A stretch of DNA of 64,000 bases, taken from assembly GCF_011745625.1 (NCBI RefSeq), contig NW_027191469.1:248001-312000 (forward strand). The letters are read 5' to 3'. Numbering within the stretch: position 1 is the stretch's first letter; each line of letters opens with the position of its first letter. This document shows, in pieces, positions 198 to 45,906 of this stretch. Origin of the DNA: Cladosporium halotolerans (Eukaryota). A model generated the notes under the pieces. The model was given only the letters and a program-made list of their open reading frames with translations. It ran no database searches and was not told where the DNA came from. The translations under genes and the position numbers were made by a program.

Positions 198-911
198 GCG
201 CCCTGAAACGGCACGATCGTCCGAAACCAGTCGGGCGAAGGCGTTGATTTTCTCTGATTGATTCACGACTAGCGAGCGGGCACGAATGGTTACGCTTTCC
301 ATCTACCGCTGTCTGGGTTTTCCGTATTTTACTGGCATGGGGTTCTACGGTTACGGGGGAAAGGCCTGGAGTCCTTTCGGCGGCGCTCTATCCGCGAGCA
401 CGGGGTTTTCTGCTCCTGGGGTTGTTTCTTGCTCTCCTCACGTTCTGTTTTTCGAGACTTCCTTTTTTGATTCCCTCCTTCCTGTCTCTTGTCTGGTTCT
501 TTCGAGAGTCGGCAGGAACTGAGAAAGCGGCATGGCGCGAGCATTCGAATGTGCACTGCATTTTTGCGGGAGCTTTGGCTTCTTCGCTCATGGGTCGGTC
601 GGTCAGCCAGACCCGGCACTGTATGTAAAGAGAACGACATCTGCATCCTGATGGCGTGCATTTGGGAGCGATTGCAGGCTTATGCATACTACACGAGAAA
701 GACAAGCAAAATCTTCGAACTCGTTTTCTTGACGGTCCCCTCCCGTTTGGACGTAAAGCCCCACTTCATCATCAGTCTGTTTACCTCGGTGCTCTACTCT
801 GCGGAGAGATGACATACCAATGGGTTCGCCCTTAATTAAGGATCAATCGTTTTTTATCGGTAAGACAGATTCACAAATCCTCTAACCCCAACATCAACGC
901 GAACACCCAAA

Positions 912-1817
912 ATGATCGACTGCACAGTTCACCTCCTCTCCCTCGACTCCTCCCTCTCCTCCAAAGACGCCGCCACCCTCCTCTCAAAGGCACTCTCAAC
1001 ACCCACCACCACCAACCCACTCCTCGTAACCGGCATCCCGCACGGCTGGATCCACAAACCACACGTCCAAGACGCCGCCCTCCTCCTCGCGCACGACTGG
1101 CACCTCTTCGCCCTCACCTCTCCTCCCCCAAACACACCACTAAACCTCACCGCAACAAACAACTCCATCCTCGCACACGCCACAATCGCCATCTCCATCC
1201 CCGAAACCCAATACACCGCCCTCCTCACCACCCGCAACTCACCCCCAACCCCCCTCCCAACAACCCCTCCGCTCCCCGCAGCCTGGCACAACCCCCAAAC
1301 CAACACCCTCTCCATCCCTCCAAGCGCCATCGCCCCAAAAACAACAACAAATCCGACAAGCACCACACGCCCCGCTCCCGGAACTCTCAACCTCGACAGC
1401 GAAATGGCCTCCTTCCTCTCCTCCCTCCTCCCCTCCCCCGCCTCTCAAACCCCCATAAGCCTCTTCAATCTCTTCCAGTACGCCCGCGCAGACTCCACGA
1501 CCCACGACGCCTACATGTCCCAGTTCAAATCCACGTTCGGCGACTCCGCCGGCGCGAGCGTCAAGTTCATGGGGCCCGTGAAATCGCCCCTGGCCCTCTC
1601 CGTCTCCCCTCCGTCGTCCTCTGAGGGCGAGGGTCAAAACCAGGCTGCGCGGGGCCAGGGCTGGCAGGACGCGAACCTGGTGCAGTACGACAGTGTCTGG
1701 CACTACGCTTGGATGCTTTCGACGGGGGAGTATGCGGAGCTGAATCGCGGGAAGGTGGAAGGGTTGGCGGATACGGGCATTTTGGGGGTGGGGGAGTGGG
1801 AGGTTTGGGGGCTGTGA
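912..1817 (+). CDS. Conserved fungal hypothetical protein with C-terminal DUF1330-like dimeric alpha-beta barrel domain
   Basis: Intronless 301-aa ORF with ATG in CAAAATG context. N-terminal CTVHLLSL..GWIHKP..HDWHLF and C-terminal PISLFNLFQY..AYMSQF..GASVKFMG..WQDANLVQYDSVWHYAWMLSTGEYAELN match the pattern of this fungal family as I recall it. Confidence 0.7.
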   Translation: MIDCTVHLLSLDSSLSSKDAATLLSKALSTPTTTNPLLVTGIPHGWIHKPHVQDAALLLAHDWHLFALTSPPPNTPLNLTATNNSILAHATIAISIPETQYTALLTTRNSPPTPLPTTPPLPAAWHNPQTNTLSIPPSAIAPKTTTNPTSTTRPAPGTLNLDSEMASFLSSLLPSPASQTPISLFNLFQYARADSTTHDAYMSQFKSTFGDSAGASVKFMGPVKSPLALSVSPPSSSEGEGQNQAARGQGWQDANLVQYDSVWHYAWMLSTGEYAELNRGKVEGLADTGILGVGEWEVWGL

Positions 1818-2060
1818 TGACCTCGAGGGTTCCAGTTGACTGGGGAGGGGAAGAGGCGGGGGACGGGGAGGGTTCATGTGATATACGGTCCTGGATGATC
1901 ACGGGCGACAACGAACACGTCGGATTCGAGGTCCTGCGGCAACGAGTTTCGACGAGGCTGATGTTTTCAAGTTCGAGAACATTGCATTGAGGCCTGGAAA
2001 CATAGACCTGTTGCGCATTCGCCAACTCAGCCTTTCAAGAGCATCGATCTCGTCAGTCGA

Positions 2061-3357
2061 TCAAGCGGAGACCGTCGCGCTCTTGTCGACGACCCCTTTC
2101 TCCGAGGCTCTGAGCTGCTCTGCTGCCGCCACAGCCAATTCCTCCGACCTCGACTTGCTGTTCGGATCAAGATACGGCACCTCGCCGATCCCAACAGCAC
2201 GGTGGCCGAACCGCTCGCCCAAACCGTCATAGTCGAACGTCGCGCTGTGGAAGGCACTGCGGTTATCCCAGATCGCTGTAACAAACCATCAAAGTCAGCC
2301 AAACAATCCCACAAAAACGCCCACCAGACAATCTCGCCAAAACTCACCAATATCATTCTCATTTCTCCACTTAAACCTCACCGTCAAATCATGCGCGTCC
2401 AGAATCCTCCGCCTGAACAACCCCAACAACTCCTCGCTCTCCTGCCCCTCCAGCTCATTAATCCACTTCGGAAACGGCCCGATCGCGAAAAGGCTCTTCC
2501 ACCCCGTGACCGGGTTCGTCCGCACAACAGGGTGCACGGCGCTCAGCTCCCTCCCAACATTCGCCGGCGCCCCGCGCGGCCCCTCGTGCACGACGACCTG
2601 CTCCGGATTCGCCGCCGCGGCCTTCAGGAAGCCGTCGCCGACAAACGTCGCCGTGAGCCCTTCCAGGAAGCGCCGGTAGGCGGGCGAAAAGCGATCGTAC
2701 AGCTCGTAGCCGCTGGCCCAGAGCGTGTCGCCTCCCGAGCTAGGCAGCTGCGTCAGGCGCAGAGACGTGAAGTCCGCGGGCACGGGCTCGAACTGGATGT
2801 CGGAGTGCCACTGGGCGGAGTCGTAGCGGCGGGGGCGGGAGCGGGAGCGGATTTCGTGGGCGAAGAGTTTCTTGCGCGCGAGGGAGGAGATGGTGCTGAT
2901 TTCGGCGTCGGCGAGGCCGAATTCGGAGGTGCTGTTGAGGATGGGGTGGGTGTGCAGGGTGCTGGTGGGGGGTTTATTGGTTGCGAGGCCGAGGGAGTGG
3001 ATGAGTGTTTTTTGGAGGGCGTCGGTTAGGTTTGTTTGCGAGCGCAAGAAGACGACGCCGCGTTGGGAGACTGGGATGCGGGGGTTAGAGGGGTTTTGGT
3101 GGAGGGTGGGAGTGGTGAGAGGGACTTGTGATGGCTAGGTCGCGGAGGCGTTCTGATGAGTTCGAGGCGTTGAGGATGTCGTCGACGAGGTTTAGGTCGG
3201 GGTATTCGCGGCCGATGACGGGTGTGGTTTCTTCGTGTTTGAAGTGGTCGAGAGAGTCGGAGAGCTTTAGAGGTTCGGGGTATGACTTTTTGTCTGTTGT
3301 ATTTCCGATAGAGGCATCTTGCTGCTGCACGTCGTCTGAAACAGCACCTGGAGCCAT
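2061..3357 (-). CDS. TauD/TfdA-family Fe(II)/alpha-ketoglutarate-dependent dioxygenase (JLP1-like sulfonate dioxygenase); exons 3357-3126, 3070-2348, 2275-2061
   Basis: Spliced product contains TPVIGREY, ISQRGVVFLR, WHSD (HxD), GGDTLWAS, HPVVRTNPVTGWKSLF and AIWDNRSAFH (distal His). Introns 3125-3071 and 2347-2276 have CTAAC/CTGAC branch sites and CAG acceptors. Confidence 0.9.
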
Positions 3358-5022
3358 ATTGAGAGAAGGGGTGTATGCGAGGAGTGGTGCTTAGCAAACT
3401 ACAACCAACCCGATCGAAGTACCTTAGGAATGCTTCCAACCCAATATAAATGGATGCTCAACTTCAACCGGCATCCTTCGACCCCGCCATTGCAGGCTCC
3501 ATGTTGCAATGCATCGGCGGGGTGCACCATAGCACGCAATCAAGCACATCATAGCCGAAGACGAAGCATTAAGCCGCCTCGCCACGCAACCGTCTGCATA
3601 GATTGGCCGAAAATCAGCGCTTATCTGCAGTAGACGGTGAAGGATGGTTGGAGTCAAATGCTTAGGCGAGGTTGAAGTATGCCGTGTTATCCGTTGAGGA
3701 GACGAGGTCTCAATGACCCCAACCCTAACCCTGGTAAGTGCCACTGATATGGTGTTGGGGTTTCAAATGCCTTTTGATCATTAGAGCGTTCCGATGGTCC
3801 AATGTTCTCGAATTAGTATCAGGTATTGCTATTGGGATCATGGCTATGGCGTTTAAATGGCCATTCCTTGGTAATCACACTGCCTCGTTGTTTGGTTGGG
3901 GCAAAGCGACAAAGACGCCGCTCCACCGTTTACAACTTTCCTTGTCATCGTAGCAATCCAAAGTTAGTCCAGTGACCATTGCTACATATATTCACAACAT
4001 CGGTCAACTCATCTATTATCCTTCGCCATGTGCTCCGGAGCTCCACTCGACCTTAGAACCCAGAGGTCATCCCTCCAAGCGATTGAAGACGTGGGCATCT
4101 AGGCTTCTTGATCCTACGAAACAGCCATCCTGTCCCTTATTGTCAAAACGAGATAAGTCAAGAAAACGCCAGAGCCGAAGGGATGAGGCAAGGATAGCTC
4201 CATTCACGTGTCTCATGCCGAGTTGTAGTGTCGAGGTATTTTCGAGCGATTCGTACAACCCTCCATCCAATCAGACGGCATCAACGCCCGGCCCACACCG
4301 CAGACGACATCCATGCATGCCGTACACACTCACCTCTTACCACCCAACCAGCGCAGTCCAACAGCGTCGAACAAAGCCCTGACTCTTCGAGTTCGGAAAA
4401 CCAAGTGCAATACACCGGCCAAAGATTCATCTGACACCTCGCACAGCATGCTATTCCACCCCAATCAACCCCCAAACCAGAACCCCAACTCCCCAAAACC
4501 CTAGCGCCTCGCACGCCATCTGTCGTGACAGCTACAGCCCACCTTTCACCACCTGCCATCCTCGAACCCTCAAATCAGAACCCCTCCTTCCCCGACCTCG
4601 CATTCCAGATCTATTCGCCGCGTCGCATGGCAGCAACGTGCTGCCGCCCCGCTTGGCGCTCGGTGGTATTGTAGTTGCGATGGCGATGTCGTGATTTCGA
4701 TGAGAGCTTGGGGAAGAGGGATGTTGGCCAATGGGGCGGCTTGAGGAGAGGGGATCATCGTGAGAGGTTTAAGACGTGATTGTCGCGAGTGCCGACGTGC
4801 CGGCTTAGGTAAGTAGGCGTCGACGGTAGATAGGTAAATGGGACTCCACGGAGGGAGGAATTTATATAAGGCGTGGTATCTTTGATCCTCGCTCGCGCTC
4901 GCTGCTACCTAACCACCTGCCTCCAAAGGCACCGACCTGATCACCTCCCCTCCGCACTCCCAAACCCTCGCCCAGCAGACGGACCCTACCACCTGCACCG
5001 AATAGAATCATCATCCTCCACC

Positions 5023-6204
5023 ATGGCGCCCGCCCTCCTCTCCCCCTCCACCCCCACCGATCGTTCCTCCGAAGAACAACAAGCCACAGCCCTCTACAAA
5101 AAAGACAAACTCCAGAACGGATCGTCCAAAGAAGCCTTCGCCCAATCGACCGCCAGCACAAACTACGCGGCCGAACTGCACGGGACCGCCTCGCACGCCG
5201 CCGCCTCCCACCCGGAGTACCTCCCCTACTGGGACGACGTCAAGTACCCGCCGTACGAGCCGTTCGAGGCCGTCGAGCGCGGGCGGGGCGCTGACCCCAC
5301 GTTCCCGAACTTATTGAAAGGAGGCGATGGGGAGGAAGGAGTGCAGGTGCGGGACCTGACGGCCAACATCGGCGCCGAAGTAACCGGCGTGCAACTATCC
5401 GGGCTTGACGAGAAAGGCAAAGACGAGCTCGCGCTCTTCGTCGCGCAGAAGAAAGTCGTCGCCTTCCGCGCCCAGGACTTCGCCGACCTCCCTATTCAGC
5501 AAGCACTGGACATCGCCGAGTCCTTCGGCCCATCACACATCCACCCCGCCAGCGGCGCGCCGAAGGGCTTCCCCCGAGTGCACGTCGTGCACCGCTCCGC
5601 GGCCGACACTACCGCGAAAGACTTCTTCTCGGAGCGCACGAACAGCATCACGTGGCACAGCGACGTGACGTACGAGCTGCAGCCGCCGGGCACGACGTTC
5701 CTGTACTTGCTCGACGGGCCCGCGGCGGGCGGCGACACGCTGTTCGCGAACCTGGCCGTCGCGTACGAGCGGCTGAGCCCGGCGTTCAAGGAGAGGCTGC
5801 ACGGGTTACAGGCAGTGCACTCGGGGCACGAGCAGGCGGGCGCGGCGCTGGCGCGCGGCGGGACCGTGAGGCGGGAGCCGGTCGCGACGGTCCATCCGGT
5901 GGTGCGCACGCATCCGGCGACGGGCGAGAAAGCGCTGTTTGTCAACCCGCAGTTCACGCGGCGGATCGTGGGGTTTAAGAAGGAGGAGTCGGACTGCTTG
6001 CTGGGTTTCCTGTACCAGCATATTGCGCTGGGCGCGGATTTGCAGGCGCGCGTCAAGTGGGAGGAGGGCACGGTGGTTGTTTGGGATAATCGGGTGACGG
6101 CGCACACGGCGATTTTGGACTGGACGGATGGGCAGAGGAGGCATTTGGCGAGGTTGACGCCGAGGGCGGAGAGGCCTTTTGAGACGCCGTATGAGGGTGC
6201 TTGA
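5023..6204 (+). CDS. TauD/TfdA-family alpha-ketoglutarate-dependent sulfonate dioxygenase (JLP1-like), intronless
   Basis: ATG at 5023 (CACCATGG), TATATAA at ~4863. Motifs LTANIGAEVTG, KVVAFRAQD, WHSDVTYE, GGDTLFAN, HPVVRTHPATGEKALFVN, VWDNRVTAH, RHLARLT. Confidence 0.93.
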   Translation: MAPALLSPSTPTDRSSEEQQATALYKKDKLQNGSSKEAFAQSTASTNYAAELHGTASHAAASHPEYLPYWDDVKYPPYEPFEAVERGRGADPTFPNLLKGGDGEEGVQVRDLTANIGAEVTGVQLSGLDEKGKDELALFVAQKKVVAFRAQDFADLPIQQALDIAESFGPSHIHPASGAPKGFPRVHVVHRSAADTTAKDFFSERTNSITWHSDVTYELQPPGTTFLYLLDGPAAGGDTLFANLAVAYERLSPAFKERLHGLQAVHSGHEQAGAALARGGTVRREPVATVHPVVRTHPATGEKALFVNPQFTRRIVGFKKEESDCLLGFLYQHIALGADLQARVKWEEGTVVVWDNRVTAHTAILDWTDGQRRHLARLTPRAERPFETPYEGA

Positions 6205-6279
6205 GTGAGGCGAGGTGGTGAGAGGATGGGGTCTACTGGAGGATTAATCTGGTTCGGTATATATGATGATATGAAGAAT

Positions 6280-6357
6280 TGTTGAAGCATTCTGGAAGTT
6301 CGTGGCCGATGAGATAAAAGGCATGTTGATGCATTGTTGAAGTTCGTGGCCGATGAG
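6280..6357. repeat. Imperfect tandem duplication, period 44 bp
   Basis: tgttgaagcattctggaagttcgtggccgatgag at 6280 and tgttgatgcattgttgaagttcgtggccgatgag at 6324, with an identical 19-bp core. Confidence 0.8.
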
Positions 6358-7585
6358 GATCATTTTACTATATGTCCATAATAAGATGGCTGACCTGTAG
6401 ATTGGCTGCTTGAATATTGAGCAGCTCTTGGAGTCAACAGAGTACGATAATAAATCCTCGACCTACCTGTATCGCGCAGACACGACGACAAGCCTTAACA
6501 CTGCCGTAGAGAAGACGCGACGCAACACCGCGAGCACGGCTACATCGCGGACGACACTCCTTGACCGTGACACAACATCCCGTCAACAACAAATGTCCGG
6601 TGGTACAGGTGAGGTCTCTCCATCCCAGGATAGCCTCGTAAGTCTCTCGTATGTGCGTCTGGCACTGACCAGCGGCCGATGCACATCATCGGTGGCTCGG
6701 GCTCCGAGACAAACGGGTTCCAGAGTTTCAGCATCTGCACGACGCGGAACGATGAGACACTGAACGGAATGCGCGGGCGTCGGAGAAAGGCGAACCGGTC
6801 CTTGGGGGATTTGCGCGGCCAGCTGGTGCTGTGAAGTCTAGAAGCGCGACTACTGCGGGCGAGGGCGGTGGGTACCTGAGGCTGTACATAATTTGGACGA
6901 TGGTCGGCAGCGTGTTGGGCGAGCAGCAGTAATCCACCTCTTCAGGCTTGCGCGTGCAGGACGGCAGGTGCCCTGGCGGGTCGCGTGTCTGCGTTCGGCG
7001 CGCGGTACGGTAAGGCGGCGCATGCGCAAGTGTCAGTAGCGCTGGACGGTGGCTTTGGGCAATAATCAATTCGGCGGGTCAGGAGGCAGCGTTTGGCCGG
7101 TGCGTGCAGGGGATCAGTGCGGCAGGGCAGGGCATTGGTGCAGCAGCCGCAGGGCTGGTGGCATCGGCAGGCCAGACGCGCGAACCGTGGGTCGCTCTGC
7201 GGCGACAGGCGTCTAGCGCGGCGCGCGAGGTGCAGTCTGGCTCGGGCGGTGCAGGGGTTTTGCGTGCTGGCCTGCGGACGTTGGTGTTGCAGGACTCAGG
7301 AGGTGAGGTGCGGTGCGGAGACGGCGAAATCGATGTGCGACGTGCGCTGCGGGTGGGCATGGCGAAATGCACTATTGGGAGATGGTATGGGATTGATGAG
7401 GGCGAGGACGATAGCCTGGTGCACGGTGGTGCTCCAGTATGTATGTAGTATAACGGTGTATGCCAATTGCTAGCAGGACGGGTAGACAGTCTCATGTCAA
7501 CCGTCGACTCGAGCACGCAAGCATCCCAGGCGTTGGCTTCAGCCTTCAGCATCAATAATAATCAGCCCTCCCATGCCACGCGAGA

Positions 7586-13639: not shown

Positions 13640-13986
13640 ATCGTCTAAATCATGCTATCAAATATGTACAATTGCGCTTAGAAACAAATGCGGCCCGCAA
13701 TATGGACGGGTCGATGCTCAATGCCTCGCGTCGCAATGCATTTCCAATGGCGAGATCGAGTGAGGTCAGGGCGGGAACAGCCGCCGCCGCTGGCTGGGGT
13801 CGCTGCTGGCGTTGACTTCGCTTGGAGACTAGGGTTATTGTGAGGTAACAGAACAGCGAATATTCTGCGAAACCAGAACTGAGCTTGATGTAAACGTTCT
13901 GACACAATTTCACGCGCATGCGAAAGCCTCACAGCAATTGCTGAAAGTCTACGTCCCGACCCAAGCTTACATCCAACCAAACCACC

Positions 13987-36013: not shown

Positions 36014-39000
36014 CTCGAGCGCGATGTACCCAATTGTCTTGGTGTGTTGAGGGAAGTGAAAGTAGGGCGAAGCAGCTGCGGATGCGGATCGCGGCCGGTG
36101 CGAATGGCGCGGGTTCAGGAGCTCGTTGGCGAGGCTCACGTGCGGGCGAGGGAGGGTGCTGAGACCGGACGGAGGAGGTGTAGCTGGGGCGCGAGGGCCG
36201 TTCGAGCAGCGGGCGCAGAGGGAGGAGGTGGTGGACGGGCGGGCGAGGCGTGTGTGTGTGAGGTTCGGTGAGAGCACGGAGGCGAGGCGTGATGATTGGT
36301 AAAGCGGCAGCTGTCTGGGCTGGGCAGCGGCGGGCGTGAGGGAGGCAGGCTGGCCGGCTGGCTGGCTGGCAGGGCCGGGGCGGGACGAGGGAGTCTCCTC
36401 ACACGCACTACGCACTAGGCTGCTCGGGGTGTCAGGCTCGTCAGGCAGACCGCAGCGCTGCGCAGAATCAACACTAGAGCGGCGGGCGGCGGAGAGGAGG
36501 GCGACGGCGCGCGCGCGAGGGTTGCGGCGAGGGTGAGACGATCGTCGCAGAAGGCAGGCCGGGGCTATTCCTGCACTATTCCTGCACTCGCCCTCGCAGC
36601 CTGCATGAGATGATGCGCGCTCGGGCCCGGCGCGCGGTCTGTCTGTCGACGGCGCGACGCCCGGATCTCGAGAGCCTCCCTGGGCCTGAGCCCTCGCCGC
36701 TCCAAATAATGCCCCCCCAGCCAATAATGCGCGGACGCTCGCTGCTTGGCTGCCGGACTTCAGCCTGTGTCTGCCGAGGCACCTGAAGACTGAAGACTGC
36801 TGGAGATGTTTGTGGCCCTGTCTCGGTGCTGCTGGATCTGGCAGTCGGGACTGCGGTCTGCACGCAACGGCGCCCTGTCTCTGGCCCTGGGCGGGCAAAG
36901 TGATGGGTCTGCCGCGTTGAAACCGACGTGGGCGGTGGCGGCAGGGCATAGTGTATACACTTCATACACACATACGCAAGGCCGGCAGAGGCTGACGCTG
37001 CCGTGCCACCAAGCCTGCAGCAGCCAAAGACAGCAACGGCCCCGGCAGTGGTGGTTTGGCAGCACAACCGCGGCGGGTGCTCGCCTGAGCAAGGCATCGC
37101 GCGTACACCGCGGGCGGTCAGCCTGGCGTGCCTGGGTGAAGCGGCAGGCCTTCGAAGGACTAGAACACACGGAGAAGGCAGCCCCATGTCTCCTATTCCA
37201 CTCGTCGGCGTGCCTTTTCATCCGCGGCGGGCGTGCGGGCGTGCAACGACTCGTAAAATCGCCTCCCAGGCCGCGCTACCGACAAGCGAAGTGTCTCAGC
37301 TGCAGGGCCTTACTCGCTGCATGGCCCTGAAACTGCTCCCCCTTGTCTGCTGAGGGAGCAGGTCGGGAATAATATCATTCTTGTCCCAGCTTCTATTTTC
37401 AACATGCTCACCGCTCCAAATAGTCGTGCAGACATGCAAGTACCCGTGAGCATCTCTTTGAGTCCTCAGTCCACTTCCTGAGTGGTGCGCAGCAGACTCC
37501 GCGATGCTCTAGGGTACCTGATAAACTCAGCCGAGAGCTCGGTACCTTAACTCAACTCAGATCCTGCCTTCCCGCACGACGGGGATCTCCGTGCGCCACC
37601 ATCACAAACCGGTGGCCCAAGAAGCACCACCAGTCCCAGGCAAATAACGCGTCGTCACTATAGATGTAAGGCGTCATCCGCCCACACCCATCCTAGTCCG
37701 CGCACGCGATCGCCTGCCCTCAAACACCGGCAGAAAGTGAGAAGACAGCTTCTCCCGCGGTTCAGAGATCCTCAGACTTTCGGCACCGACCGCGACAATA
37801 AATCCTTCAGGAACCCACCCGCCCGCCCTCATCATCTCTCGCCCTCCTCTCCACTTGCCTGTTTCCGGCCATTCCACTCTCTCTAGCAGCCCCCTCGGTC
37901 CCCTCCACTCCAACACAAAAAGCTCGCTTGACTTTCGTCCGTCCGACGCAAAGTCCGCAACCCCGCCGAGCCGCCGTTTCAACCCCCTCGGTCGACCCCG
38001 AGAAATTGCGAGCTCGACTGAGAAAGCCAACCAGCCCAAATCAGGCTCCGTCTCCGCGCGCTGTCAATTCCGCTCTCTTCACTTCCCACCTATGTAGTAG
38101 CTCAAACACACATCTGCACTTCCCGTCGCATATCGATTCCATCCAGACGAGCAGCTCTCAGGCGCGTTTCGACTCTCCCCGTCCCTTCTGCGACACCTGT
38201 CGCGCGGGAAGGCCGAGCACGGACGCCGCGTTCGGTGGCGCACGTACAGTACAGTAGTTGTTCGTATGATCGACGACGCGTCGAGGCTTGTTCGTCCTGT
38301 CTGCCGCCCGCAGCGGCAGACCGCTCTTCGCGAGCGAGCGAGCGGGCTGAGCTGATGCTGGTTTGCGGGTCGCTTGCTCGCGAGCGCGTTCGCGCTTCCG
38401 TTCACGATTCGGGTTCGGTAACGGGATGTTTTGGGGGTGTGACTCGGCTCGACAACGTGCGTCGAACAGAACAGAACATCACCGTAGACAAAGCAGTAAG
38501 TGTACGTAGCCCTGCCGAAAATCAGCATCCCGCCTCCAGTCCCTCCGTCTCCAACCCTCCTTGCCACCACCACCAGCAGCCTACTTGTACACCCGCCCCA
38601 TCTGCCCACAACACAACCCTCGCACAGCATCCCCATCCCGCCGCCGCCGCCGCGCGAACAAACGAACGAACGCAAGGGTCCTCCTCTGTCACGCCCGCGC
38701 CATGCCCGATCCGCTCCGTATAGCGAGCGGCCGACGCCTGCGGTGCGACTGTCGACCGGCACCGCAACCTGTTGCGTCAGGAATGTCTGGCGTTGGTGCT
38801 GAGATCGCTTTGCAGGAAGTGGGAGCTGGCGGACTGGAGGGCTTTGAGTAGGCGGTTGCTGCTGTGGTGGTAAGTAAAGTCGGTTTGCTGAGGTCGAGGG
38901 CGGGGGGTGGTTTGCTATGTGTGTTATGCCTGCGTGACCCCTGGCCGGCGTGGCTGGTGGCTTGGACGGTTTGGATGCAGGGTGCCGGGCGAGGCTGGGG

Positions 39001-39904
39001 GTTGTGGGACGCTGGTGTTGAGGTGAGGGCGTTGTTCGCTCATGCGGGTGCGCGTGAGTTGAACGTCGGTGCCTAAGCAGAACCAAGCAAGAGAGCATAG
39101 AAGGACTCATACAATGGAGGGGAGTGTGGGGTTGAGCTTTTGGTCGGGTGGTGGTCGTTTGCTCTGAAATTTGAATACGTCTTTGTGACGGATTGTTTTC
39201 TCAGATAGTCTTCCACGGACGTGCTGATGGTGCATCTTCTTAAGCACCCGGTGAGGGTGGCGCATCTATCATCATGAGGAGCATGTCTTGTGTGTGGTTC
39301 AGCATCCAAGCGAGAGCGTGGAAGAAACGTTCGACGCCCACCTTGTTCCGTCACTTAGAGATTGGTTCCTCGTGTTTGTGCAGGTGGAGGCGAAAGCGAT
39401 CCTAATGTCTCATGTGCTCAGGATAGTCCGATCTAGATATTGTCATGAACATTTTACTATTCCGTATGATGCTTATTGATCACAATACAATGATGCCATC
39501 TGCAGGGATCTGTATTGACCGGCTTCAATACTCTGTCAGGTAACAGCGTTGGAGCGGAAGCGTTTGCCAAGACTCGCGCTTTTAACCTCACTTCACTTCA
39601 CTTCAACACCTCTAGCAAGAAAACCTAAATAGCACGAGCTGAAGATACAATAGAAATGGCGATTTACTGATAACGTCAGGTGTTTTATGCGTTGGCTTGG
39701 ATGGAGCCGCACGTGGATAATATGACAAAATGAGCACATGAAGGTTGCTCGTCTTGCGCGTGAAGCGCATATGAAGCGCGATTGAGCTTGTATAAAAAGG
39801 CCCCTTCTTTCCGCTCCAAATTCTTCCGCCTCGTACCGGCTCACTCTCTCCATCGCTCACTACAGTCAATTGAAACCAAACCCAACCTGTCACAAGCCGC
39901 CAAC

Positions 39905-41392
39905 ATGGCAGGCTATTACCCAGAACTCGCCCTCCTCTCACTTCACCGAGCGCCGACTCCACTTCCCGACCGCATTCGCAGTCCAGCCTTGCGATCCGCC
40001 TCTACCACTTCTTCATCTCCCACTGCTACCTCTCATCAACAAACCTGGCCAGGATTCCGATCAAGCCTCCGCTCCTATCCGCGAAGAGCGCATTCTTGCG
40101 TCGAGTCCTACAGACCGCCACAACACATGACCTCGTCGACTGCGCCGGAGAGCCCTAGCGACACTATGCAGTCTTTCTCGCCAATCTCGCCCAACATGTC
40201 GTCGACAATGAAAATGTCTTCCACGCCGCCTGCCATCCCTCCACGAGCATCGAGTCTCAAGCAAAGACACAGCATCCGCCTCTTCACGCCGACAGACCCC
40301 ACCGCGCCGAAACCGAAGCGCAAGAAACTGGTGCGCAAGCACAGCTCCCAGCCAGCATTCGAGATTCTCAACCCGAAGCCAGCACCAACGCCCAATTCAT
40401 CAGAAGCGCAAAGAAACGCGCCCAAAACCGACGAGCAGAACGCATCACCAACCACTAAATCCACAACCACAATCACCAATCCAGCCCAACCCACCAAACC
40501 AATCCCCCCACCCCTCATCCTCGCCCGCCCGAGCCCACCGCCCCTCCTCCCCGAACTCGACTTCGGCAGCCCCACCACCTCACCAACCTCCACTCTCTTC
40601 GACCCCTCAACCCACCAACCAACCCCCACCGCCCAAATAACAATCTCCATCCTCCCACGGCCCCCAGCCCCCACCTCCGCTCCACCAACAACACCAGGCC
40701 CTACAACAACCCCAACCTACCGCTGCGACATCCACGCCAGCCACGGCGCCAGCCACACCGCAATCGAGCACGCCTGCCAATCGCTCGTCCTCGCCGCCGG
40801 CGGCAGCCTCCTCGACTCGTACTTCTACCCGGGCGGGTTCCTGTACTCGCTGCCGGCGGGAGCGGCGGAGCCGATCGGCAGCGGGGAAGTGGAGGGCGCG
40901 GGAGCGCGGATCGAGGTGCGCAGCTGGGTGCCGTTTGCGGTGGCGCGGTTCGATGGGTTGCGGATGCATCCGCCGGGCGGGAGGTTGGGCGGGGAGGTGG
41001 TTAGGGTGGGGGAGGGGTGGGGTCGGTTTGGGGATGAGGGGTCGAGGGAGGAGAAGGTTGAGAGGGTCGAAGGAAAATCGGAGAAAGAAGGAGCAGAAGG
41101 GGACGATGCGGCTACGACGCCGCGGGAGGGCGTGAGGAGGAGTGTTCTGGGGTTTGATGGGGCGGCTTTGACTTCGATGAGGAGCTTGCGGAGACTGAAG
41201 TGCCGCTCGAGCCGGGATATGGACCTGGGTGCTGGAGAGGTCAAGGTGTCGTCTCCGACTACGGTTGTTCAGAGTCCTCGGGAGAAAGGAGATCACCGGT
41301 TCACGGTCATGTCATATGCGTCCGATAGCGGCGACAGCGACGAGAGCGGTAATGAGGAATGGGAGAGTGTGAGGAGTGAATTGGACAATTGA
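39905..41392 (+). CDS. Hypothetical Pro/Ser/Thr-rich protein with a small central globular segment
   Basis: Open frame of ~495 codons from CAACATGG at 39905, with TATAAAA at 39791. No firm family. Confidence 0.65.
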   Translation: MAGYYPELALLSLHRAPTPLPDRIRSPALRSASTTSSSPTATSHQQTWPGFRSSLRSYPRRAHSCVESYRPPQHMTSSTAPESPSDTMQSFSPISPNMSSTMKMSSTPPAIPPRASSLKQRHSIRLFTPTDPTAPKPKRKKLVRKHSSQPAFEILNPKPAPTPNSSEAQRNAPKTDEQNASPTTKSTTTITNPAQPTKPIPPPLILARPSPPPLLPELDFGSPTTSPTSTLFDPSTHQPTPTAQITISILPRPPAPTSAPPTTPGPTTTPTYRCDIHASHGASHTAIEHACQSLVLAAGGSLLDSYFYPGGFLYSLPAGAAEPIGSGEVEGAGARIEVRSWVPFAVARFDGLRMHPPGGRLGGEVVRVGEGWGRFGDEGSREEKVERVEGKSEKEGAEGDDAATTPREGVRRSVLGFDGAALTSMRSLRRLKCRSSRDMDLGAGEVKVSSPTTVVQSPREKGDHRFTVMSYASDSGDSDESGNEEWESVRSELDN

Positions 41393-41480
41393 AAATGGAC
41401 ATTTGGATGTTTGATGGCATGCAGAGTGCTCGGAGGTGTATGCTTGTCTAAAGGCCGCTGGATGGCGGGATAGGCATAGA

Positions 41481-42843
41481 TCATTCCCAACTGATACTGT
41501 GGAATTGGTTAGCACGGAATCATAGAACAATGGAATTTCAGAACCTTACCCCAGCATGATACCTGCTCCAGCTGCCATGGCTAGGAACTGAACAAGCATG
41601 CCCTTGAGCTCTTTGAGCTTGTTCGGACCAGTCTCCAGCATCTCCGGTATCACGCCAACAGTACCAACGTAGAGGAAGGTGCCGGCCGTGAACGGAAGTA
41701 GAAGGTCGCCCCACTGCAAGCTGGTTCCCAGAAGGCCTTGGTTACCCAGACCCTTGGCCAGCTCGACAGAAGCGCTGTTACCTCCAAACTCCTGCACAGC
41801 GACGCCAATGGCAGTACCGAGAACAGCGCCCATAGCAGTCACAAACTGGAGACCCATGGCGAGCTTCTTGCTCATGCCACCCTGGATCAGCAAAGCAAAG
41901 TCACCAACCTCGTGCGGAATCTCGTGGCAGAAGACGGCCAGGGTGGTGGTAGCGCCGATGGTGGGGGAGGCGTAGAACGAAGAGCTCAAGGCCAGACCAT
42001 CGGTGATGTTGTGGGTGAAGTCGGCAATGATGTTGAGGTAAGCCGAAAGCTTAATCTCTTTCTTCGGTGGCTCGCTGCTAGATGGAGACGTGGCTGATGC
42101 CTTAGCATCGTTGCCCTTACGGTTGCGGAGACCAGAGTCCTTATCCTCGAGAGCAGACGCTTTGGCTTTCGCGTCGCCGAGATGTCCATTGCTCGGCTCA
42201 GCAGAGTGGCCGTGGTCGTGAGTGTGGCCCTCTCCACCAGTCGCGATCCTCAAGCCCTTGTCCATTGCGACGAAAGTCACGAATCCAACCATGATCGCAA
42301 CGCCCAACAACAGGTTCTTGTTCGGCTCGACAAGTCTCACCCTGACCTCGCCCTCCGGAACCTCCCCAAGGAAGATCTCAGGCAGCAGATGGAACAGGGT
42401 GTCTCCAAGCAATCCACCAACAGCAAAGGCAACCATCGTATTCAAGCTACTGGGATCGACGTTCGTTGGCACGAGGGCGAGCAGGAAGTTCGGCGGGCCA
42501 GAGATGTAGGCGGTAGCAACGAATGAGTTGATAGCAGGCGAAGTGAAGGGGAACAGCATTTTGAACGCTTGCTGGAGCATGGAAGAGTGCTCTTCACCCT
42601 CCGATGCATGATGGGCGGTCAATTGCTCGACAACAGGGCATGACTGCACGTTCTGTTTAGCAGATCTCTTGTAGTCAGTGGTATCAATTGATATACCTGC
42701 AACTGCTCCTCAATCTCCTGCGTACTGAGCGAACCAACGTCAATTTTGACGGCAGACTTTTCAGTCTCCTGAGCATAAACAGAGCAGATCAAGATAGCCA
42801 CGAGGGCCAGTAAGGCCAGCCTCAGCCCTTTCATTCCCATCAT
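41481..42843 (-). CDS. YKE4: ZIP-family zinc transporter, ZIP7/Yke4/Catsup type; introns 42696-42644 and 41549-41497
   Basis: Signal peptide, FAVGGLLGDTLFHLLPE, His-rich loop HTHDHGH, AYLNIIADFTHNITDGLA, HEIPHEVGDFALL, PFTAGTFLYV. Last exon encodes GISWE*. Confidence 0.9.
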
Positions 42844-43069
42844 TGCGCAGTTGTATGTCGCAGACAACACGTCGCGTGTCTGACGTGCCAACAGCGCCCG
42901 AATTGATGGAGCCCCTCCCCCGAACGATCCCCGTAGTCGGGCGTCGGGCAGCGCAAACGCCGACCCGCCCGACCCTGGACGTCAAACTTCCAGAAAAGTT
43001 CACCCGAGGAAAGAAAGAAGGCGCTCGCTCGCTCCCATTCCAACAAACCACACAACCACAACCACAACC

Positions 43070-43801
43070 ATGGGCCGCGAAATCCAAAAGAAAAAGAACC
43101 GCTCCGGCATCCCCAAAAAGCGCCAGAAGCCCAAGTCCAAGAAGCGCATCCTCAACAACCCCGTCATCGCCGCCAACTGGGACAGCTCGCAGACCCTCAC
43201 GCAGAACTACCGCCGCCTGGGCCTCGCGTCGAAACTCAACAAGCACACCGGCGGCGTCGAGCGCCATGCCGACGACGTTGAGCAGCTGCAGTCCAACAGA
43301 CACAGGGATGATCCGCTGAGCATCGCCGCGCACCGCCAGGCGGAGCAGCAGGTCGGCCTGGGCGAGGCGAGGATCGAGAGGGACCCGGAGACCGGCGCGA
43401 TTCTGAGGGTCATCGAGGGCCCTGCTGCGAAGCCGAACCCGCTGAACGACCCGCTGAACGACCTGGACTCGAGCGACGACGAGCAGCGCGGCTGGGCGCG
43501 CAAGGGCGGCCAGCACGGGAATATCGAGGAGGGCGAGTTTGAGGGGTTCGGCGATGACGACGGCAAGACGGACGTCGTGCGGGAACTGGAGGCTCGCGCG
43601 AGCATGCCGGCGAAGAAGTACAAGCGCAAACAGACCGAGAACGAAGTTGCGTTCATCGAAAAGCTTGTGCGGAAATACGGCGAGGATACTGGCAAGATGG
43701 CGCGGGACATGAAGATCAACTACATGCAGAGGAGCGAAGGTGACCTCAAGAAGAGGATTAAGAAGTGGCGGGAGGCTGGAGGAAGGGTCGAGGGCGAGTG
43801 A
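43070..43801 (+). CDS. NOP16: Nucleolar protein 16 (60S ribosome biogenesis)
   Basis: MGREIQKKKNRS..NPVIAANWD..TLTQNYRRLGL, IERDPETGAI, NPLNDPLN, LVRKYGED..MARDMKINYMQRSEGDLKKRIKKW. Confidence 0.9.
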   Translation: MGREIQKKKNRSGIPKKRQKPKSKKRILNNPVIAANWDSSQTLTQNYRRLGLASKLNKHTGGVERHADDVEQLQSNRHRDDPLSIAAHRQAEQQVGLGEARIERDPETGAILRVIEGPAAKPNPLNDPLNDLDSSDDEQRGWARKGGQHGNIEEGEFEGFGDDDGKTDVVRELEARASMPAKKYKRKQTENEVAFIEKLVRKYGEDTGKMARDMKINYMQRSEGDLKKRIKKWREAGGRVEGE

Positions 43802-44234
43802 GGCGTCTTAAGAGCCTTGCTTTTTCGCAAAACTGTACCACTACACGGAGGCCGCAGAGGCTCTTCCGCTTGATGCCAGGCTTGAAATTTCAAACGGAGG
43901 CAAGGTCTCGTGTTTCCGACGCGGACAGGCCGAATGCCCAGTATCGAGACCATTTACGGCATATCTCTTGCCAAGGATGAAGTCTTGTCCGTACTTAGAG
44001 GCCGAAATATAGAACGGCCATGTAAGACGGGCCTTCGAGGATTTCTTTAGCCAGACCGGACAGAGATTTGGCAGACATAATCGGTATTCATCATATAGAC
44101 GCCTCCAACGGCGAAGCCAAAATACCTCGCATCAATCCCAAGAGACCTAGCGCCGGCGCTCTCCTTTCCGTCTCAGAAAGAACCCCCAAAGAACAAAAAG
44201 ACACTGTAGCAACGCCAAGTTTCCGCACCTAGCC

Positions 44235-45906
44235 TCACCTGCCTGTAATCCCATCCGTCCTCCCATCGGCACCCTCCGTAACCTCCCCATCATCCCCACC
44301 ACTCAAATAGCTCGCCTTCTCCGCCTCCTCATACTCCCCAATCAACTCCATGACCACCTCTCGCGCGCTATCGAATTCGCCGAGGCCGTCGCGGAAGGGC
44401 TCCTCGCGCTTGTACTGCTCGAGGAAAGCATTGCGCTTGCGCAAGCGGTCGTACTGGCCCACGATGCGCTTGAAGAGAGTATTGATACCCGTGTGGTTGG
44501 CGAGCATGAGGCCGGAGACGCGGGGAGGCGGGCGCGAGCTGTATGGTGGCTGGAGGAAGGGCGATGTGCGCGTGAGGGCTACTTGGATGCTGGCGGGGCC
44601 CCAGGGGATGAAGGTGGCGAGTTGGCGCTCGCGGATGCGGAGGAGGGATTTGTGGACCTGTGACAGATGTGTTAGGGGTAAGACCTTTGTGTAGGAAGAG
44701 GCTCAGAACTTACGTCTGTGGGATCAGCCTCGCCCATGATGATGTTCAAGATGGAGATGTAGCAGCTGTTCTTGCTCGGGCTTGCGGAAACCATGCGGTT
44801 CTTGGGCTGGAGTAGGCGGCGCATGACGTCCAGGACTGTAGTCTTGCGGACCATTCTTGCAGATTCGACGTTATCGCCTGTGAAAGGCGTGTAGCTCGTC
44901 TGGAGGAAATGACATCTGGGCGTCGGAATCAGACTGGCGACGATACCGACCAGATCGTTATGCATGTAGCCTGGGTATCGCAGAGTAGTTGTGCTAGCGC
45001 ACATGACCGTGCTGACGAGCTGATTCGTCTGCTGGAAGGAAGGCTCCTGGACGTGGAGGGTGTCCGCTGCAATGCGAGAGAGAGCGCCATTGTCGAGAAC
45101 CACTACTGAGTCGGCGTTTTGCGTCAAACGCTTGAGAGCGAGGAGAGAGTTGTAAGGCTGAACCACGACATCGCCGGAGTTCTGAGTATCAGGGAAGACA
45201 GAGTACGTCTGGATCAGTTTCTTCGGGAACCGATCATTCAGCCTCTCCAGCAAGAAAGATCCGAGACCAGATCCAGTGCCGCCCGCAATGGAGTGGAGCA
45301 GCATGAAACCCTGCAATTTAGGTCAGCACACCTGTTCCAGCCTTCCAGAATGGCTCTAGATACACACCTCTAAGCTGTCGCTTCCATCCGCTTCCCTATC
45401 AATCATATCCAGCACCTCATCCTGCACAGTATCTCCCATAGCATAACCCGCCGCCCAATTGTTTCCCGCGCCCGCTCCTTCCTTGTGCACGTAGAAGTTC
45501 TCCGGATTGTATATATTGCCATAGGGCCCGTTTGTGATACCGTTTATGACTCGCGGTTCGAGATCGAGCATGATCGCGCGCGGCACATAGCGCGTGTCGT
45601 CGGACTGGTAGAAGAAGACATCTTTGCGATCGCCGCCAGCGTGCGGGCCTTCGGCGGCGTAGGGGTGTAAGTTGCCGTTCTGATCGATACCGTGCTCGAG
45701 GCAGAGCTGTTGCCAGAATTGCGAGCCGACTGGAGCGTAGTTCAGTGAGTTGGGACTTCTTGTCTAGGATGCGGTGAGGCTGGGTGGTGGGGAGGATGTA
45801 CCGCTGTTACCGCATTGGCCGGCTTGGAGGGTGATTATTTCGCTGTGAGATTATTAGTAGACTGTTCGCACGCTTGACACCTATATGAAAAGCCTTACCG
45901 AGGCAT
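44235..45906 (-). CDS. mipA: Gamma-tubulin; introns 45898-45843, 45801-45730, 45367-45311, 44713-44658
   Basis: [98 protein letters not shown]. Confidence 0.97.

Follow-up and report, generated by a model that had tools for sequence, protein, structure and literature searches.

Strand asymmetry of base composition has been described in several systems. In animal mtDNA and bacterial replichores, G/T-rich strands are opposed to C/A-rich strands, the effect is strongest at silent sites, and it is ascribed to time spent single-stranded. The skew amplitude of animal mtDNA is comparable to that of the domains described here. However, mtDNA and replichore asymmetry follows replication across an entire genome or replichore, whereas the sign in the present DNA flips each 0.3-1 kb along transcription units.

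The closest precedent comes from fungal genes, whose coding strand favours C over G at its 5' end and G over C at its 3' end in about 60 fungi, including the Dothideomycetes Pyrenophora and Stagonospora (McLean & Tirosh 2011, PMC3315797). As presented in the parts of that report cited here, the bias is also found at fourfold-degenerate sites, reaches into UTRs, has amino-acid effects, and affects many but not all genes, with a strong skew in Candida albicans and a weak one in S. cerevisiae and S. pombe. An 'adaptive hypothesis' was advanced there, and species-wide averages were described by a three-line model (5' ramp, flat middle and 3' ramp) with flat AT skew. Near fungal transcription start sites (TSSs), the sense strand has C over G (Fujimori et al. 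2005, PMC555766). As far as the cited portion of that report goes, this skew is a peak local to the TSS, and it describes neither a paired G-rich arm nor intragenic repeats nor silent-site effects over hundreds of codons, all of which are encountered here.

A bipolar, kb-scale mirror asymmetry has also been described in the flanks of human meiotic hotspots, where C>N and A>N changes occur on the single-stranded strand, namely the forward strand to the left of the break and the reverse strand to its right; off-centre peaks of C>G, A>G and C>A are ascribed to translesion synthesis (Hinch et al. 2023, PMC7615360, as excerpted here).

Results

The window is the whole stretch of 64,000 nucleotides of Cladosporium halotolerans DNA that was analysed. 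Across 1-46 kb, GC skew in 200-bp windows ranged from -0.8 to +0.7 with an SD of 0.285. Chance levels were obtained from 300 whole shuffles (mean SD 0.091, maximum 0.102) and 300 shuffles in 2-kb blocks (mean 0.136, maximum 0.144). The fraction of windows with |skew| >0.4 was 0.155 (null maximum 0.013), and GC skew was correlated with TA skew (r = +0.39; null maximum 0.25). Sliding 200-bp skews revealed recurrent switches from C/A-rich to G/T-rich on the + strand, such as those from -0.79 at 1101 to +0.54 at 1701, from -0.82 at 12401 to +0.54 at 12901, from -0.42 at 14301 to +0.74 at 14601 and from -0.73 at 40501 to +0.64 at 41001. With a strict upward switch defined as a skew below -0.3 followed by one above +0.3 within 600 bp, the rule yielded 17 upward and 10 downward switches. 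The mirror-skew domains proposed in the initial annotation are confirmed as real in this window: 10 of the 11 intervals it named hold a strict upward switch, and the eleventh (45360-45800) holds a weaker one (-0.53/+0.42). The right part (46-64 kb) is quiet and largely without such domains, as had also been noted (skew SD 0.154; 1.1% of windows >0.4). The domains and their genes are listed below.

738..1953: bipolar domain (span 1215, switch ~1616, arms -0.84/+0.67) over a whole EthD-like gene and its flanks
912-1817, + strand: CDS of the EthD-like gene (full-length homologues, 41-51% identity); fourfold skew -0.92 to +0.71, upstream 60 nt -0.52, downstream 70 nt +0.50
2044..3362: bipolar domain (switch ~2685) over a TauD-family gene
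2295-3047 plus an upstream exon, - strand: the TauD-family gene (Pfam TauD 3.3e-27); sense fourfold skew -0.81 to +0.76
4251..4849: small ORF-less bipolar domain (switch ~4610-4650, left arm -0.49, right arm +0.39) with at least 4 stops in each frame and a longest open stretch of 103 codons; it lies just upstream of TATATAA (4863-4869), which precedes the next gene
4883..6403: bipolar domain (switch ~5692) over a TauD gene
5023-6204, + strand: CDS of that TauD gene (TauD 3.8e-63); 5' flank -0.46, 3' flank +0.56, C-arm beginning directly after the TATA box
12319..13652: bipolar domain (switch ~12739) over a PI-PLC-X-like gene (PLC-like gene below; ORF 12362-13639, - strand)
13850..14880: bipolar domain (switch ~14509, skew -0.42 then +0.74) with a two-ORF gene on the + strand (13945-14301 and 14350-14751)
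15601..16575: weaker bipolar domain (switch ~16240, -0.45/+0.44); gene model tentative
23385..24353: bipolar domain (switch ~23812, -0.68/+0.60); tentative model, + strand, ORFs 23384-23893 and 24252-24794
26477-28063, + strand: ORF of a glutamate-cysteine ligase (GCL) gene (GCS 8.8e-174)
27213..28159: bipolar domain (switch ~27785) over the last ~900 bp only of the GCL gene; 3' part fourfold skew -0.76 to +0.79, upstream 700 bp of the same exon unskewed
28567-32451, - strand: Mhp1/RNI-like ORF, a single conserved gene (homologues cover 98%)
30972..32542: first (5') cycle in the Mhp1/RNI-like ORF, switch ~31579
29594..30134: second, weaker cycle in this ORF, switch ~29850
28269..29186: third (3'-most) cycle in this ORF, switch ~28753
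37426..39267 (approximate boundaries): region with two upward switches (38273, 38748) over ORF 38079-39110, - strand
39777..41494: bipolar domain (switch ~40836, -0.73/+0.64) over ORF 39782-41392, + strand; fourfold skew -0.59 to +0.71
42948..43860: milder bipolar domain (switch ~43328) over the Nop16 gene, 43070-43801, + strand (Nop16 4.9e-66)
44086..44896: bipolar domain over the last exon, the intron before it and the 3' flank of a tubulin-family gene on the - strand (exons called by eye, introns inferred); exon 5 first 200 nt -0.44, last 200 nt +0.43, intron 4 -0.38, 3' flank +0.37
45285..45861: small bipolar domain over an internal exon and both flanking introns of the tubulin-family gene; intron 2 -0.56, exon halves -0.14/+0.34, intron 3 +0.29; exon 4 (597 nt), between this domain and the preceding one, is unskewed (-0.16)

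A vanishing of the skew at synonymous and non-coding sites had been named as evidence against the domains. Instead, the skew remains there and peaks at fourfold-degenerate sites, where its extremes of -0.92 and +0.94 exceed those elsewhere, in line with the synonymous shift first noted. The PLC-like gene runs from -0.83 to +0.94 at such sites, whereas fourfold skew is flat and negative in 4 unaffected genes. Outside coding sequence, local arm skew was followed by 3 of the 4 inferred tubulin introns, 5 of 6 UTR-like flanks and the one ORF-less domain. Skew at fourfold sites, in introns, in flanks and in an ORF-less stretch indicates that protein or codon selection is not the cause. The predicted amino-acid shift was borne out for the PLC-like protein. 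In its C-arm part, 40 of 195 columns differ from the homologue majority, 26 toward C-rich codons, 11 toward G and 3 neutral; in its G-arm part, 33 of 71 columns differ, 22 toward G, 8 toward C and 3 neutral. These data support a neutral strand-asymmetric substitution process, also moving amino acids, as the right class of explanation; to this extent the process suggested in the initial annotation stands.

Most skew units coincide with one transcription unit each. In most short genes a single unit runs from about the TSS or 5' UTR to ~150-250 bp beyond the stop, and in 8 short genes listed above the domain equals the CDS plus 40-250 bp flanks; the intergenic spacers are unskewed, with near-zero values at, for example, 3300-4200, 10300-11100 and 24800-26400. 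G-rich 3' ends meet at convergent gene pairs (1800-2300, 28000-28500 and 43800-44300). Units are anchored on transcription units, yet the 1294-codon Mhp1/RNI-like ORF contains three complete C-then-G cycles, with a p3 skew SD matched by 0 of 2000 codon-order shuffles. Its sense p3 skew is -0.61 then +0.81 in the first cycle (GC3 0.93-0.95 at the switch), and -0.61 in codons 721-780 and +0.53 in codons 841-900 in the second; codons 481-690 are unskewed, of lower GC3 (0.52-0.80), with arms on either side. Because three full cycles occur in one conserved ORF, the switches are supported as not merely gene-end effects. The pattern is absent from the G-alpha, ZIP and Mug190-like genes and one internal tubulin exon, all of them conserved.

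The sense C-arm was longer than the G-arm in 10 of 15 oriented domains (not significant; one orientation uncertain), and no measured property truly depends on gene direction. The earlier remark that polarity is independent of gene strand is uninformative, as a mirror-symmetric unit reads alike on both strands.

The two arms are compositional complements, that is, true mirrors. On the + strand the C-arm contains A.218, C.468, G.144 and T.170, and the reverse complement of the G-arm A.213, C.448, G.150 and T.189, with equal dinucleotide observed/expected (O/E) values. Pooled third positions on the sense strand gave A.17, C.67, G.11 and T.05 in the C-arm; A.04, C.09, G.67 and T.19 in the G-arm; A.03, C.47, G.48 and T.03 in the core; and A.15, C.36, G.27 and T.23 in unaffected genes. 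Such complementary third-position arms rule out sense-specific codon selection as the source. On the strand running 5'->3' outward from the core, third-position C falls by ~0.37 relative to the core and is made up about equally by T and by G; these are compositions compared, not observed mutations.

The switch core has ~95% GC3 and is rich in CpG, as compared with a GC3 of ~62% in unaffected genes. Mean GC is 0.66 with 26 CpG per 200 bp at upward switches, and 0.51 with 14 at downward ones; at the switch itself GC is 0.67-0.69 with 13.5-14.3 CpG per 100 bp, falling to 0.54-0.60 and ~8 farther out. CpG decay is absent from the arms (CpG O/E 1.14-1.16), a search there for RIP-like TpA excess found none (TpA 0.51-0.59), and the 17 switch points share no motif beyond GC/CpG-rich words. 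Arms measure 165-1059 bp and whole units 0.5-1.8 kb. The switch is a step of 200-300 bp, and it stays sharp where unequal arms join (878 vs 337; 420 vs 913). Beyond 700 bp, skew in pooled flanks averages near zero with no reversal of sign. In the two TauD genes skew rises toward the gene ends, not toward the core.

Of 20 distinct related metagenome loci (43-64% protein identity), 9 have both arms at the same position of the PLC-like gene, and the p3 pattern recurs at that place in orthologues from distant relatives; relatives sharing this position are 21-45% different at silent sites. Polarisation of substitutions had been proposed as a check. When third-position changes in the relatives were polarised by parsimony, with a stationary simulation giving the expected parsimony bias, C in the C-arm was gained 27 times and lost 73 times (simulation 7.7:12.3), and the corresponding G-arm ratio was 13:19 (simulation 3.6:5.7). 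No ongoing build-up of skew was found among these changes, and the excess of C loss in the C-arm is just moderately larger than parsimony alone would produce and varies with the model used.

Discussion

Our preferred explanation is a transcription-linked, strand-specific loss of cytosine from DNA that is single-stranded for short periods. Judged from sequence, the probability that the domains are neutral strand-asymmetric substitution footprints on transcription units, left by transcription-exposed cytosine damage, is roughly one half. The bias would stem from unrepaired deamination or base loss on DNA that is single-stranded transiently in transcription, and the outcome would be C>T, or C>G after abasic-site bypass. 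Exposure of the sense strand in the distal part of sense transcripts would yield the G/T-rich 3' arm, and exposure of the antisense strand in the distal part of putative antisense or internal transcripts the C/A-rich 5' arm. Displaced strands rich in G would promote R-loop formation, making the process self-reinforcing, and strong codon selection may let the default C/T-ending codon usage prevail in the G-alpha, ZIP and Mug190-like genes.

Several results count against this reading. Intragenic units (the three Mhp1-like cycles, the last 900 bp of GCL and the tubulin pair) argue against a simple 5'-end/3'-end model, and each would need extra internal transcription units. Conserved genes without the pattern, if highly expressed, would argue against transcription-associated mutagenesis, whose effect should be greatest where expression is high, and the polarised changes reveal no ongoing build-up. 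A further point against is the co-variation of AT skew, which is flat in the averages of PMC3315797.

The main rival, which we consider unlikely, is break resection at gene ends. Meiotic or mitotic double-strand breaks would fall in the AT-richer, nucleosome-poor intergenic DNA and in certain AT-richer zones within genes. Their 3' overhangs, extending some hundreds of bases into the genes, would lose C (and A) as long as they are single-stranded, so that the overhang strand turns G/T-rich on either side, and the middle would stay GC/CpG-rich. Such a process is orientation-blind, as seen here, and the observed arm lengths are similar in scale to resection tracts in yeast. Each of the 10 strict downward switches falls in DNA of lower GC, those that could be placed being intergenic (2005, 13843, 28211, 32664, 39452 and 43956), and the unskewed low-GC3 zone of the Mhp1-like ORF is flanked by arms in the expected order. 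On the other hand, a fixed tract length predicts a midway switch, and unequal arms meet sharply; the GCL C-arm (27300-27700) has no G-arm to its left (skew -0.25 to +0.02 at 26500-27100), requiring a one-sided break site; and the 95% GC3 cores need an extra GC-raising force that is strongest farthest from breaks. [quoted passage not shown] That gene skew is nevertheless weak in the former and strong in the latter (PMC3315797, in the parts cited) suggests that a transcription-linked cause fits better than meiotic hotspots.

The human signature, as given in the cited parts of PMC7615360, fits the polarity required by resection, and its prominent C>G is compatible with the replacement of C by both T and G deduced from the compositions above; it is, however, a weak rare-variant excess at PRDM9 sites, whereas the present signal is equilibrium composition. 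It would put breaks at the AT-richer unit borders, not at the CG-rich centres where the initial annotation had sought break hotspots. In the Dothideomycete Zymoseptoria tritici, 1435 of 2578 hotspots lie in exons, offering a precedent for intragenic breaks, but GC-biased conversion is weak or absent (PMC5844332, from the portion cited).

Less probable still is the picture of the initial annotation, a focal bidirectional process at the GC/CpG-rich core. A fixed initiation site would spread its effect both ways and leave the outward-running strand G/T-rich; it might be, for example, an intragenic recombination hotspot where repair is GC-biased, or a cryptic promoter firing in both directions. 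This is the simplest geometry for bipolar units with GC3 and CpG peaking at the switch and flanks that return to near zero; it explains isolated units such as GCL naturally, and its polarity equals that of GC skew around mammalian bidirectional CpG-island promoters. Nevertheless, we know of no fungal promoters in the middle of conserved exons. The lack of a shared motif and the TauD skew increasing toward gene ends speak against a core origin, the match of unit ends to transcript ends in 8 short genes would be chance, and the pooled profile would look the same whether skew decays outward from the centre or arm length varies. By the human signature, breaks located at the core would also give the opposite polarity (PMC7615360, parts cited).

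Selection on nucleic-acid properties rather than mutation is improbable. It might act, for example, through C-rich 5' and G-rich 3' portions that set how fast Pol II moves or how it terminates, as in the 'adaptive hypothesis' of McLean & Tirosh, through termination that relies on R-loops where the genome is compact, or by keeping local structure out of the mRNA. Retention of the pattern at one gene position across diverged relatives implies that something maintains it, C-arm erosion is expected if a fixation bias opposes mutation, and G-rich 3' ends are located at convergent pairs. However, arms that are exact complements, dinucleotides included, point to one DNA-level process and not to two RNA-level functions; full cycles lie within ORFs and one unit over an ORF-less stretch; many neighbouring genes lack the pattern; and the C-loss excess is model-dependent.

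Replication origins at the cores, with a G/T-rich leading strand as in bacteria, share the polarity of the C/A-to-G/T switch but can hardly account for 17 strict switches in 46 kb (one per 2.7 kb), 15 of them within ORFs or exons of listed genes and 2 in tentative gene models, for units ending at gene ends, or for an adjacent 18 kb almost without units, and to our knowledge no eukaryotic replication skew comes near this amplitude.

Beyond the preferred transcription-linked cytosine loss and its rivals, the domains of this window are an extreme form of the fungal gene skew of McLean & Tirosh 2011 (PMC3315797), with which they share polarity, presence at fourfold sites, reach into UTRs, amino-acid shift and the sparing of some genes. 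In contrast to the averages in the cited parts of that report, single genes here reach -0.9/+0.9 at silent sites, AT skew flips with GC skew, the sign changes in one step of 200-300 bp over a ~95% GC3 core, and long genes carry whole C-then-G units at one end or serially. What is new relative to those parts is therefore the amplitude, the co-variation of AT and GC skew, and the occurrence of complete bipolar units within genes.

Strength and alternation of the skew

Along the forward strand, GC skew in 200-bp windows follows a sawtooth running from about -0.8 to +0.7, confirming the repeated C/A-to-G/T switches described in the initial annotation. TA skew shifts in the same direction (r = +0.39; null maximum 0.25), so that arms are C/A-rich and then G/T-rich. 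We use the term unit for a C/A-rich C-arm, a GC/CpG-rich core holding the switch and a G/T-rich G-arm. When a strict switch was defined as skew passing between -0.3 and +0.3 within 600 bp, we found 17 upward (C-rich to G-rich) and 10 downward switches. A strict upward switch is present in 10 of the 11 intervals originally offered as examples, and a weaker one in the remaining interval. Between 1 and 46 kb the standard deviation (SD) of the skew is 0.285, compared with null means of 0.091 (maximum 0.102) for whole shuffles and 0.136 (maximum 0.144) for 2-kb block shuffles (n = 300 for each), and |skew| exceeds 0.4 in 15.5% of windows (null maximum 1.3%). Upward switches are rich in GC (0.66) and CpG (26 per 200 bp) and downward ones poorer (0.51 and 14), indicating that the alternation is not random. 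The C-arm and G-arm are true mirrors in both base and dinucleotide content.

The right part of the window (46-64 kb) is quiet, as had been noted, with a skew SD of 0.154. It contains a lone G-rich peak at 60401-60701 (skew up to +0.53), at the 3' end of an amidohydrolase-like ORF (60072-60788), and a weak C-then-G third-position pattern in ORF 46334-47602 (GDPD, -). Elsewhere, pyrimidine (C/T-rich) tracts at 7700-8100 and 19300-20400, upstream of ORFs 8686-10314 and 20453-21637, have GC skews between -0.14 and -0.51, and their TA skew is positive (+0.08 to +0.47). Judged by composition, these tracts are unlike the C/A-rich arms and look more like the promoter-proximal skew of fungal TSSs.

Units and genes

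The 64-kb sequence has a GC content of 57.8% and no N. Its intron-containing genes include the Pfam families Fungal_trans, GATA, G-alpha, Tubulin, Nop16, TauD and GCS. Homologues of three window proteins point to the Dothideomycetes, close to Cladosporium: a Cladosporium fusiforme entry shares 78% identity with the Mhp1/RNI-like protein, and Cladosporium entries about 56-57% with the PLC-like protein. Near-identical proteins (93-99%) also occur. The genes most relevant to the skew are:

912-1817 (+), EthD-like gene
2295-3047 (-), TauD gene with an upstream exon
5023-6204 (+), TauD gene
12362-13639 (-), PLC-like gene
26477-28063 (+), glutamate-cysteine ligase (GCL)
28567-32451 (-), Mhp1/RNI-like gene
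43070-43801 (+), Nop16
about 44-46 kb (-), tubulin-family gene

A single unit covers the CDS plus 40-250 bp of flank in eight short genes. Intergenic spacers have skew near zero, and the C-arm of a TauD gene begins right after a TATATAA. Homologues matching over the full length at 41-51% identity show that the most extreme ORF, 912-1817, is a real gene. The TauD/TfdA-family dioxygenase genes at 2295-3356 (-) and 5023-6204 (+) are arranged head to head with about 1.7 kb between them, and each has a full skew unit.

The polarity of the units had been described as independent of gene strand. This proved uninformative: a unit that is its own reverse complement automatically shows the same polarity on either strand, which is equivalent to a sense strand that is C/A-rich first and G/T-rich last. 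Unit lengths range from 540 to 1840 bp, and arms of the cleanly bounded units from 165 to 1059 bp. Of 15 units with an orientation, 10 have a sense C-arm longer than the G-arm, a non-significant excess, and no feature measured here truly depends on gene direction.

McLean & Tirosh (2011; PMC3315797) reported that the coding strand is C-biased 5' and G-biased 3' in the majority of some 60 fungi; the bias reached fourfold sites, UTRs and promoter-proximal DNA and affected amino acids, and no cause was assigned. Eight single-domain genes (912-1817, both TauD genes, the PLC-like gene, 13945-14751, 39782-41392, Nop16 and, for the G-arm, the 3' end of GCL) show this 5'-C/3'-G order. The window also resembles that description in skew at fourfold sites (-0.92 to +0.94) and in UTR-like flanks, and in the shifted amino-acid usage between the ends of the PLC-like protein. 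By contrast, the AT skew that this text describes as flat along the gene co-varies with GC skew here; in gene 912-1817 third-position TA skew flips with it, from -0.83 to +0.50. Whereas the middle of the gene is flat in the published profile, the change here is completed within a step of 200-300 bp, over a core whose GC3 is 93-97%. Finally, the rule of one gradient per gene, with a 5' ramp, an intermediate middle and a 3' ramp, holds for the short genes and fails in three.

These three, the Mhp1-like ORF, GCL and the tubulin-family gene, contain complete C-then-G units within long genes. ORF 28567-32451 (1294 codons) is a single conserved gene, as homologues cover 98% of it. Its sense third-position skew runs through three cycles (-0.61, +0.81, -0.61, +0.53, -0.76, +0.36) with a GC3 peak at every upward switch, and its SD (0.428) is reached by none of 2000 codon-order shuffles (maximum 0.212). 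The complete unit of GCL is confined to the last 900 bp, and the tubulin-family gene has two units with an unskewed 597-nt exon between. The possibility that switch points track only transcript midpoints is thus half right: it describes the short genes, with one unit each, but not the full units inside long genes. Searches of the GC-skew literature (Dothideomycetes, fungi, hotspots) returned no description of sub-genic bipolar units in fungi among the matches listed; those listed for Dothideomycetes were mitogenome or genome reports.

Silent sites, non-coding DNA and proteins

Skew persists at synonymous and non-coding sites, and the signal is strongest at sites neutral for the protein. Fourfold skew spans -0.92 to +0.71 along the EthD-like gene and -0.83 to +0.94 along the PLC-like gene, and the 3' part of GCL covers -0.76 to +0.79; in four unaffected genes it is flat and mildly negative. 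The complementary compositions of the two arms at third positions rule out translational codon preference as the cause.

Pooled third-position composition (arms on the sense strand)
C-arms: A.17, C.67, G.11, T.05
Cores: A.03, C.47, G.48, T.03
G-arms: A.04, C.09, G.67, T.19
Unaffected genes: A.15, C.36, G.27, T.23

The skew of the local arm is shared by three of four tubulin-family introns (inferred by eye) and five of six UTR-like flanks; intron 1 of the tubulin-family gene (+0.04) and a 60-nt flank downstream of the PLC-like gene (+0.03) are the exceptions. A complete C/A-then-G/T unit of 560 bp without a long ORF was found at 4270-4830, in the interval separating two divergent TauD-family genes, with a TATATAA just downstream. 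It has at least 4 stops per frame and a longest open stretch of 103 codons; it could represent a gene with tiny exons, a decayed gene or a transcript that is non-coding.

The proposed shift in amino acids was upheld in the PLC-like protein by comparison with 10 homologues. In the C-arm part 40 of 195 majority columns differ, 26 toward C-rich codons and 11 toward G; in the G-arm part 33 of 71 differ, 22 toward G and 8 toward C.

Possible base changes behind an arm

On the strand read 5' to 3' away from the core, third positions lose about 0.37 C relative to the core and gain about 0.17 T and 0.19 G, with A nearly unchanged; these figures compare compositions and are not a mutation spectrum. Cytosine damage on single-stranded DNA would yield C>T by direct read-through, and C>G if the damaged base were removed and C inserted opposite the gap. 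This route is known from yeast and from APOBEC-type signatures. Hinch et al. (2023; PMC7615360) reported the same classes at human meiotic breaks, where the flanking single-stranded strand shows C>N and A>N, and off-centre C>G and A>G are attributed to translesion synthesis. The composition shift in the window (C to T and G, on one strand) fits this hotspot signature; the polarity would agree with breaks at unit borders and not at cores, and the GCL unit lacks the partner arm that a border break would give.

Repeat-induced point mutation and methyl-CpG decay, which would leave DNA AT-rich with an excess of TpA or a depletion of CpG, were excluded, since the arms are 59-62% GC with CpG O/E of 1.14-1.16 and TpA O/E of 0.51-0.59. 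Dinucleotide O/E values reveal no CpG- or CpA-specific signature in the arms. No switch-point motif emerged: at their cumulative-skew minima the 17 units have nothing in common except GC/CpG-rich words, and the 'cc|gg' at these minima is an artefact of the method.

Conservation in relatives

The PLC-like orthologue set comprised 26 metagenome loci, representing 20 distinct sequences (six pairs are 99-100% identical), with a skew SD of 0.13-0.28 per locus. In nine of the 20, both arms fall at the same position in the protein and GC3 peaks at the switch; three have the C-arm only (one truncated) and eight have no pattern. Recurrence of the two-arm pattern in nine distinct contigs rules out an artefact. 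As the arms keep their position despite third-position differences of 21-45% between relatives compared, the pattern is maintained and not merely inherited.

The same divergence biases parsimony counts. With that bias, all sites on 8 terminal branches gave 36 gains and 130 losses of C in the C-arm and 39 gains and 75 losses of G in the G-arm; third positions on 5 branches gave gained:lost ratios of 27:73 and 13:19, against 7.7:12.3 and 3.6:5.7 in a stationary simulation of the bias. These parsimony-biased substitutions in relatives show no sign of ongoing skew build-up, and the C-arm is perhaps undergoing some erosion.

Near the PLC-like gene lies a Gln-rich 542-aa ORF (8686-10314), and ORFs of 530-580 aa lie beside PLC orthologues in four relatives' loci:

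L001, 7689-9284
L005, 4499-6217
L006, 5879-7615
L008, 2926-4635

All five share a very similar third-position string, with T > A throughout and a short G-rich mid-stretch. This suggests conserved synteny of these putatively orthologous ORFs with the PLC-like gene.

Processes that could expose one strand

The interpretation in the initial annotation was right in class, as the process is neutral, strand-asymmetric and strong enough to alter proteins; its claim of independence of genes and its appeal to origins were wrong or uninformative. Four processes have the right polarity: outward transcription, overhangs from border breaks, a focal event at the core and an origin at the core.

The two model yeasts have well-mapped meiotic hotspots, and to our knowledge Candida albicans has no standard meiosis. 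We rank transcription first, at a probability of about 0.4-0.5, because units stop at transcript ends, take in introns and UTRs and exclude spacers, and because the 2011 survey (PMC3315797) reports only weak gene skew for the two model yeasts against strong skew for C. albicans. Transcription outward from the core would leave its non-template strand exposed, which is the sense strand in the 3' arm and the antisense strand in the 5' arm. The units internal to long genes count against this reading, as do the lack of the pattern in conserved genes and of any feature tied to gene direction.

Breaks at unit borders, whose 3' overhangs would be the exposed strand, are unlikely in our estimate. Their polarity fits the human data (PMC7615360), and unit borders are AT-richer and unskewed; however, the GCL unit is one-sided and lacks the expected partner arm, unequal arms still meet in a sharp step, and cores are very GC-rich. 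The pooled profile around cores fits centre-out and border-in processes alike, because arm lengths vary. A focal process at the core, somewhat less probable again, offers the simplest geometry, but a break there would have the wrong polarity and the coincidence of unit ends with gene ends would be accidental. Selection on RNA or DNA properties would explain the hint of erosion in the parsimony-biased counts, yet is hard to reconcile with the exact complementarity of the arms, and we consider it improbable. Replication origins at cores, exposing lagging-strand templates, fit in polarity, but the density and position of the jumps exclude them for practical purposes: of the 17 within 46 kb, 15 fall inside ORFs or exons and the other two in uncertain gene models, and units end at gene ends.

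Consequences

Numerous ORFs longer than 150 aa overlap in the window. Because arms poor in T+G (or A+C) have almost no stop codons, long spurious ORFs arise in several frames and on the opposite strand, and ORF length is no proof of coding here. Overlaps of real genes by ORFs of 150-365 aa on the opposite strand or in other frames are numerous; examples are:

1239-1877 (-)
8929-10026 (-)
28834-29607 (+)
12639-13331 (-)

The skew also distorts codon-usage and expression indices, and amino acids that converge through composition (Pro/Thr/Ser versus Gly/Val/Trp) can lead alignments and phylogenies astray.

Cumulatively, the finding is a striking form of a known fungal gene skew, whose sub-genic bipolar units and composition shift are worth follow-up. 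Fungal gene skew entered the literature in 2005-2011 with no settled mechanism, and what is published describes weak species-wide averages. Here single genes are near saturation, their switch points are sharp, the pattern repeats within genes, and some relatives have it where others do not, so that rival causes (exposure in transcription or R-loops, break resection, biased repair) become directly testable on a handful of loci. More speculatively, and with long odds against the joint claim, the cores may be fixed points within genes at which an endogenous, germline kataegis-like process starts in Cladosporium-related fungi. One strand per side would repeatedly become single-stranded, with C changing to T and G about equally; silent sites would be driven until about 70% are C or G, and ordinary proteins would have between a fifth and nearly half of their variable residues rewritten. 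The initiation sites would be stationary across species with largely randomised silent sites. If true, such a local mutational architecture would be of a new kind and separate from the gene-end skew of 2011.
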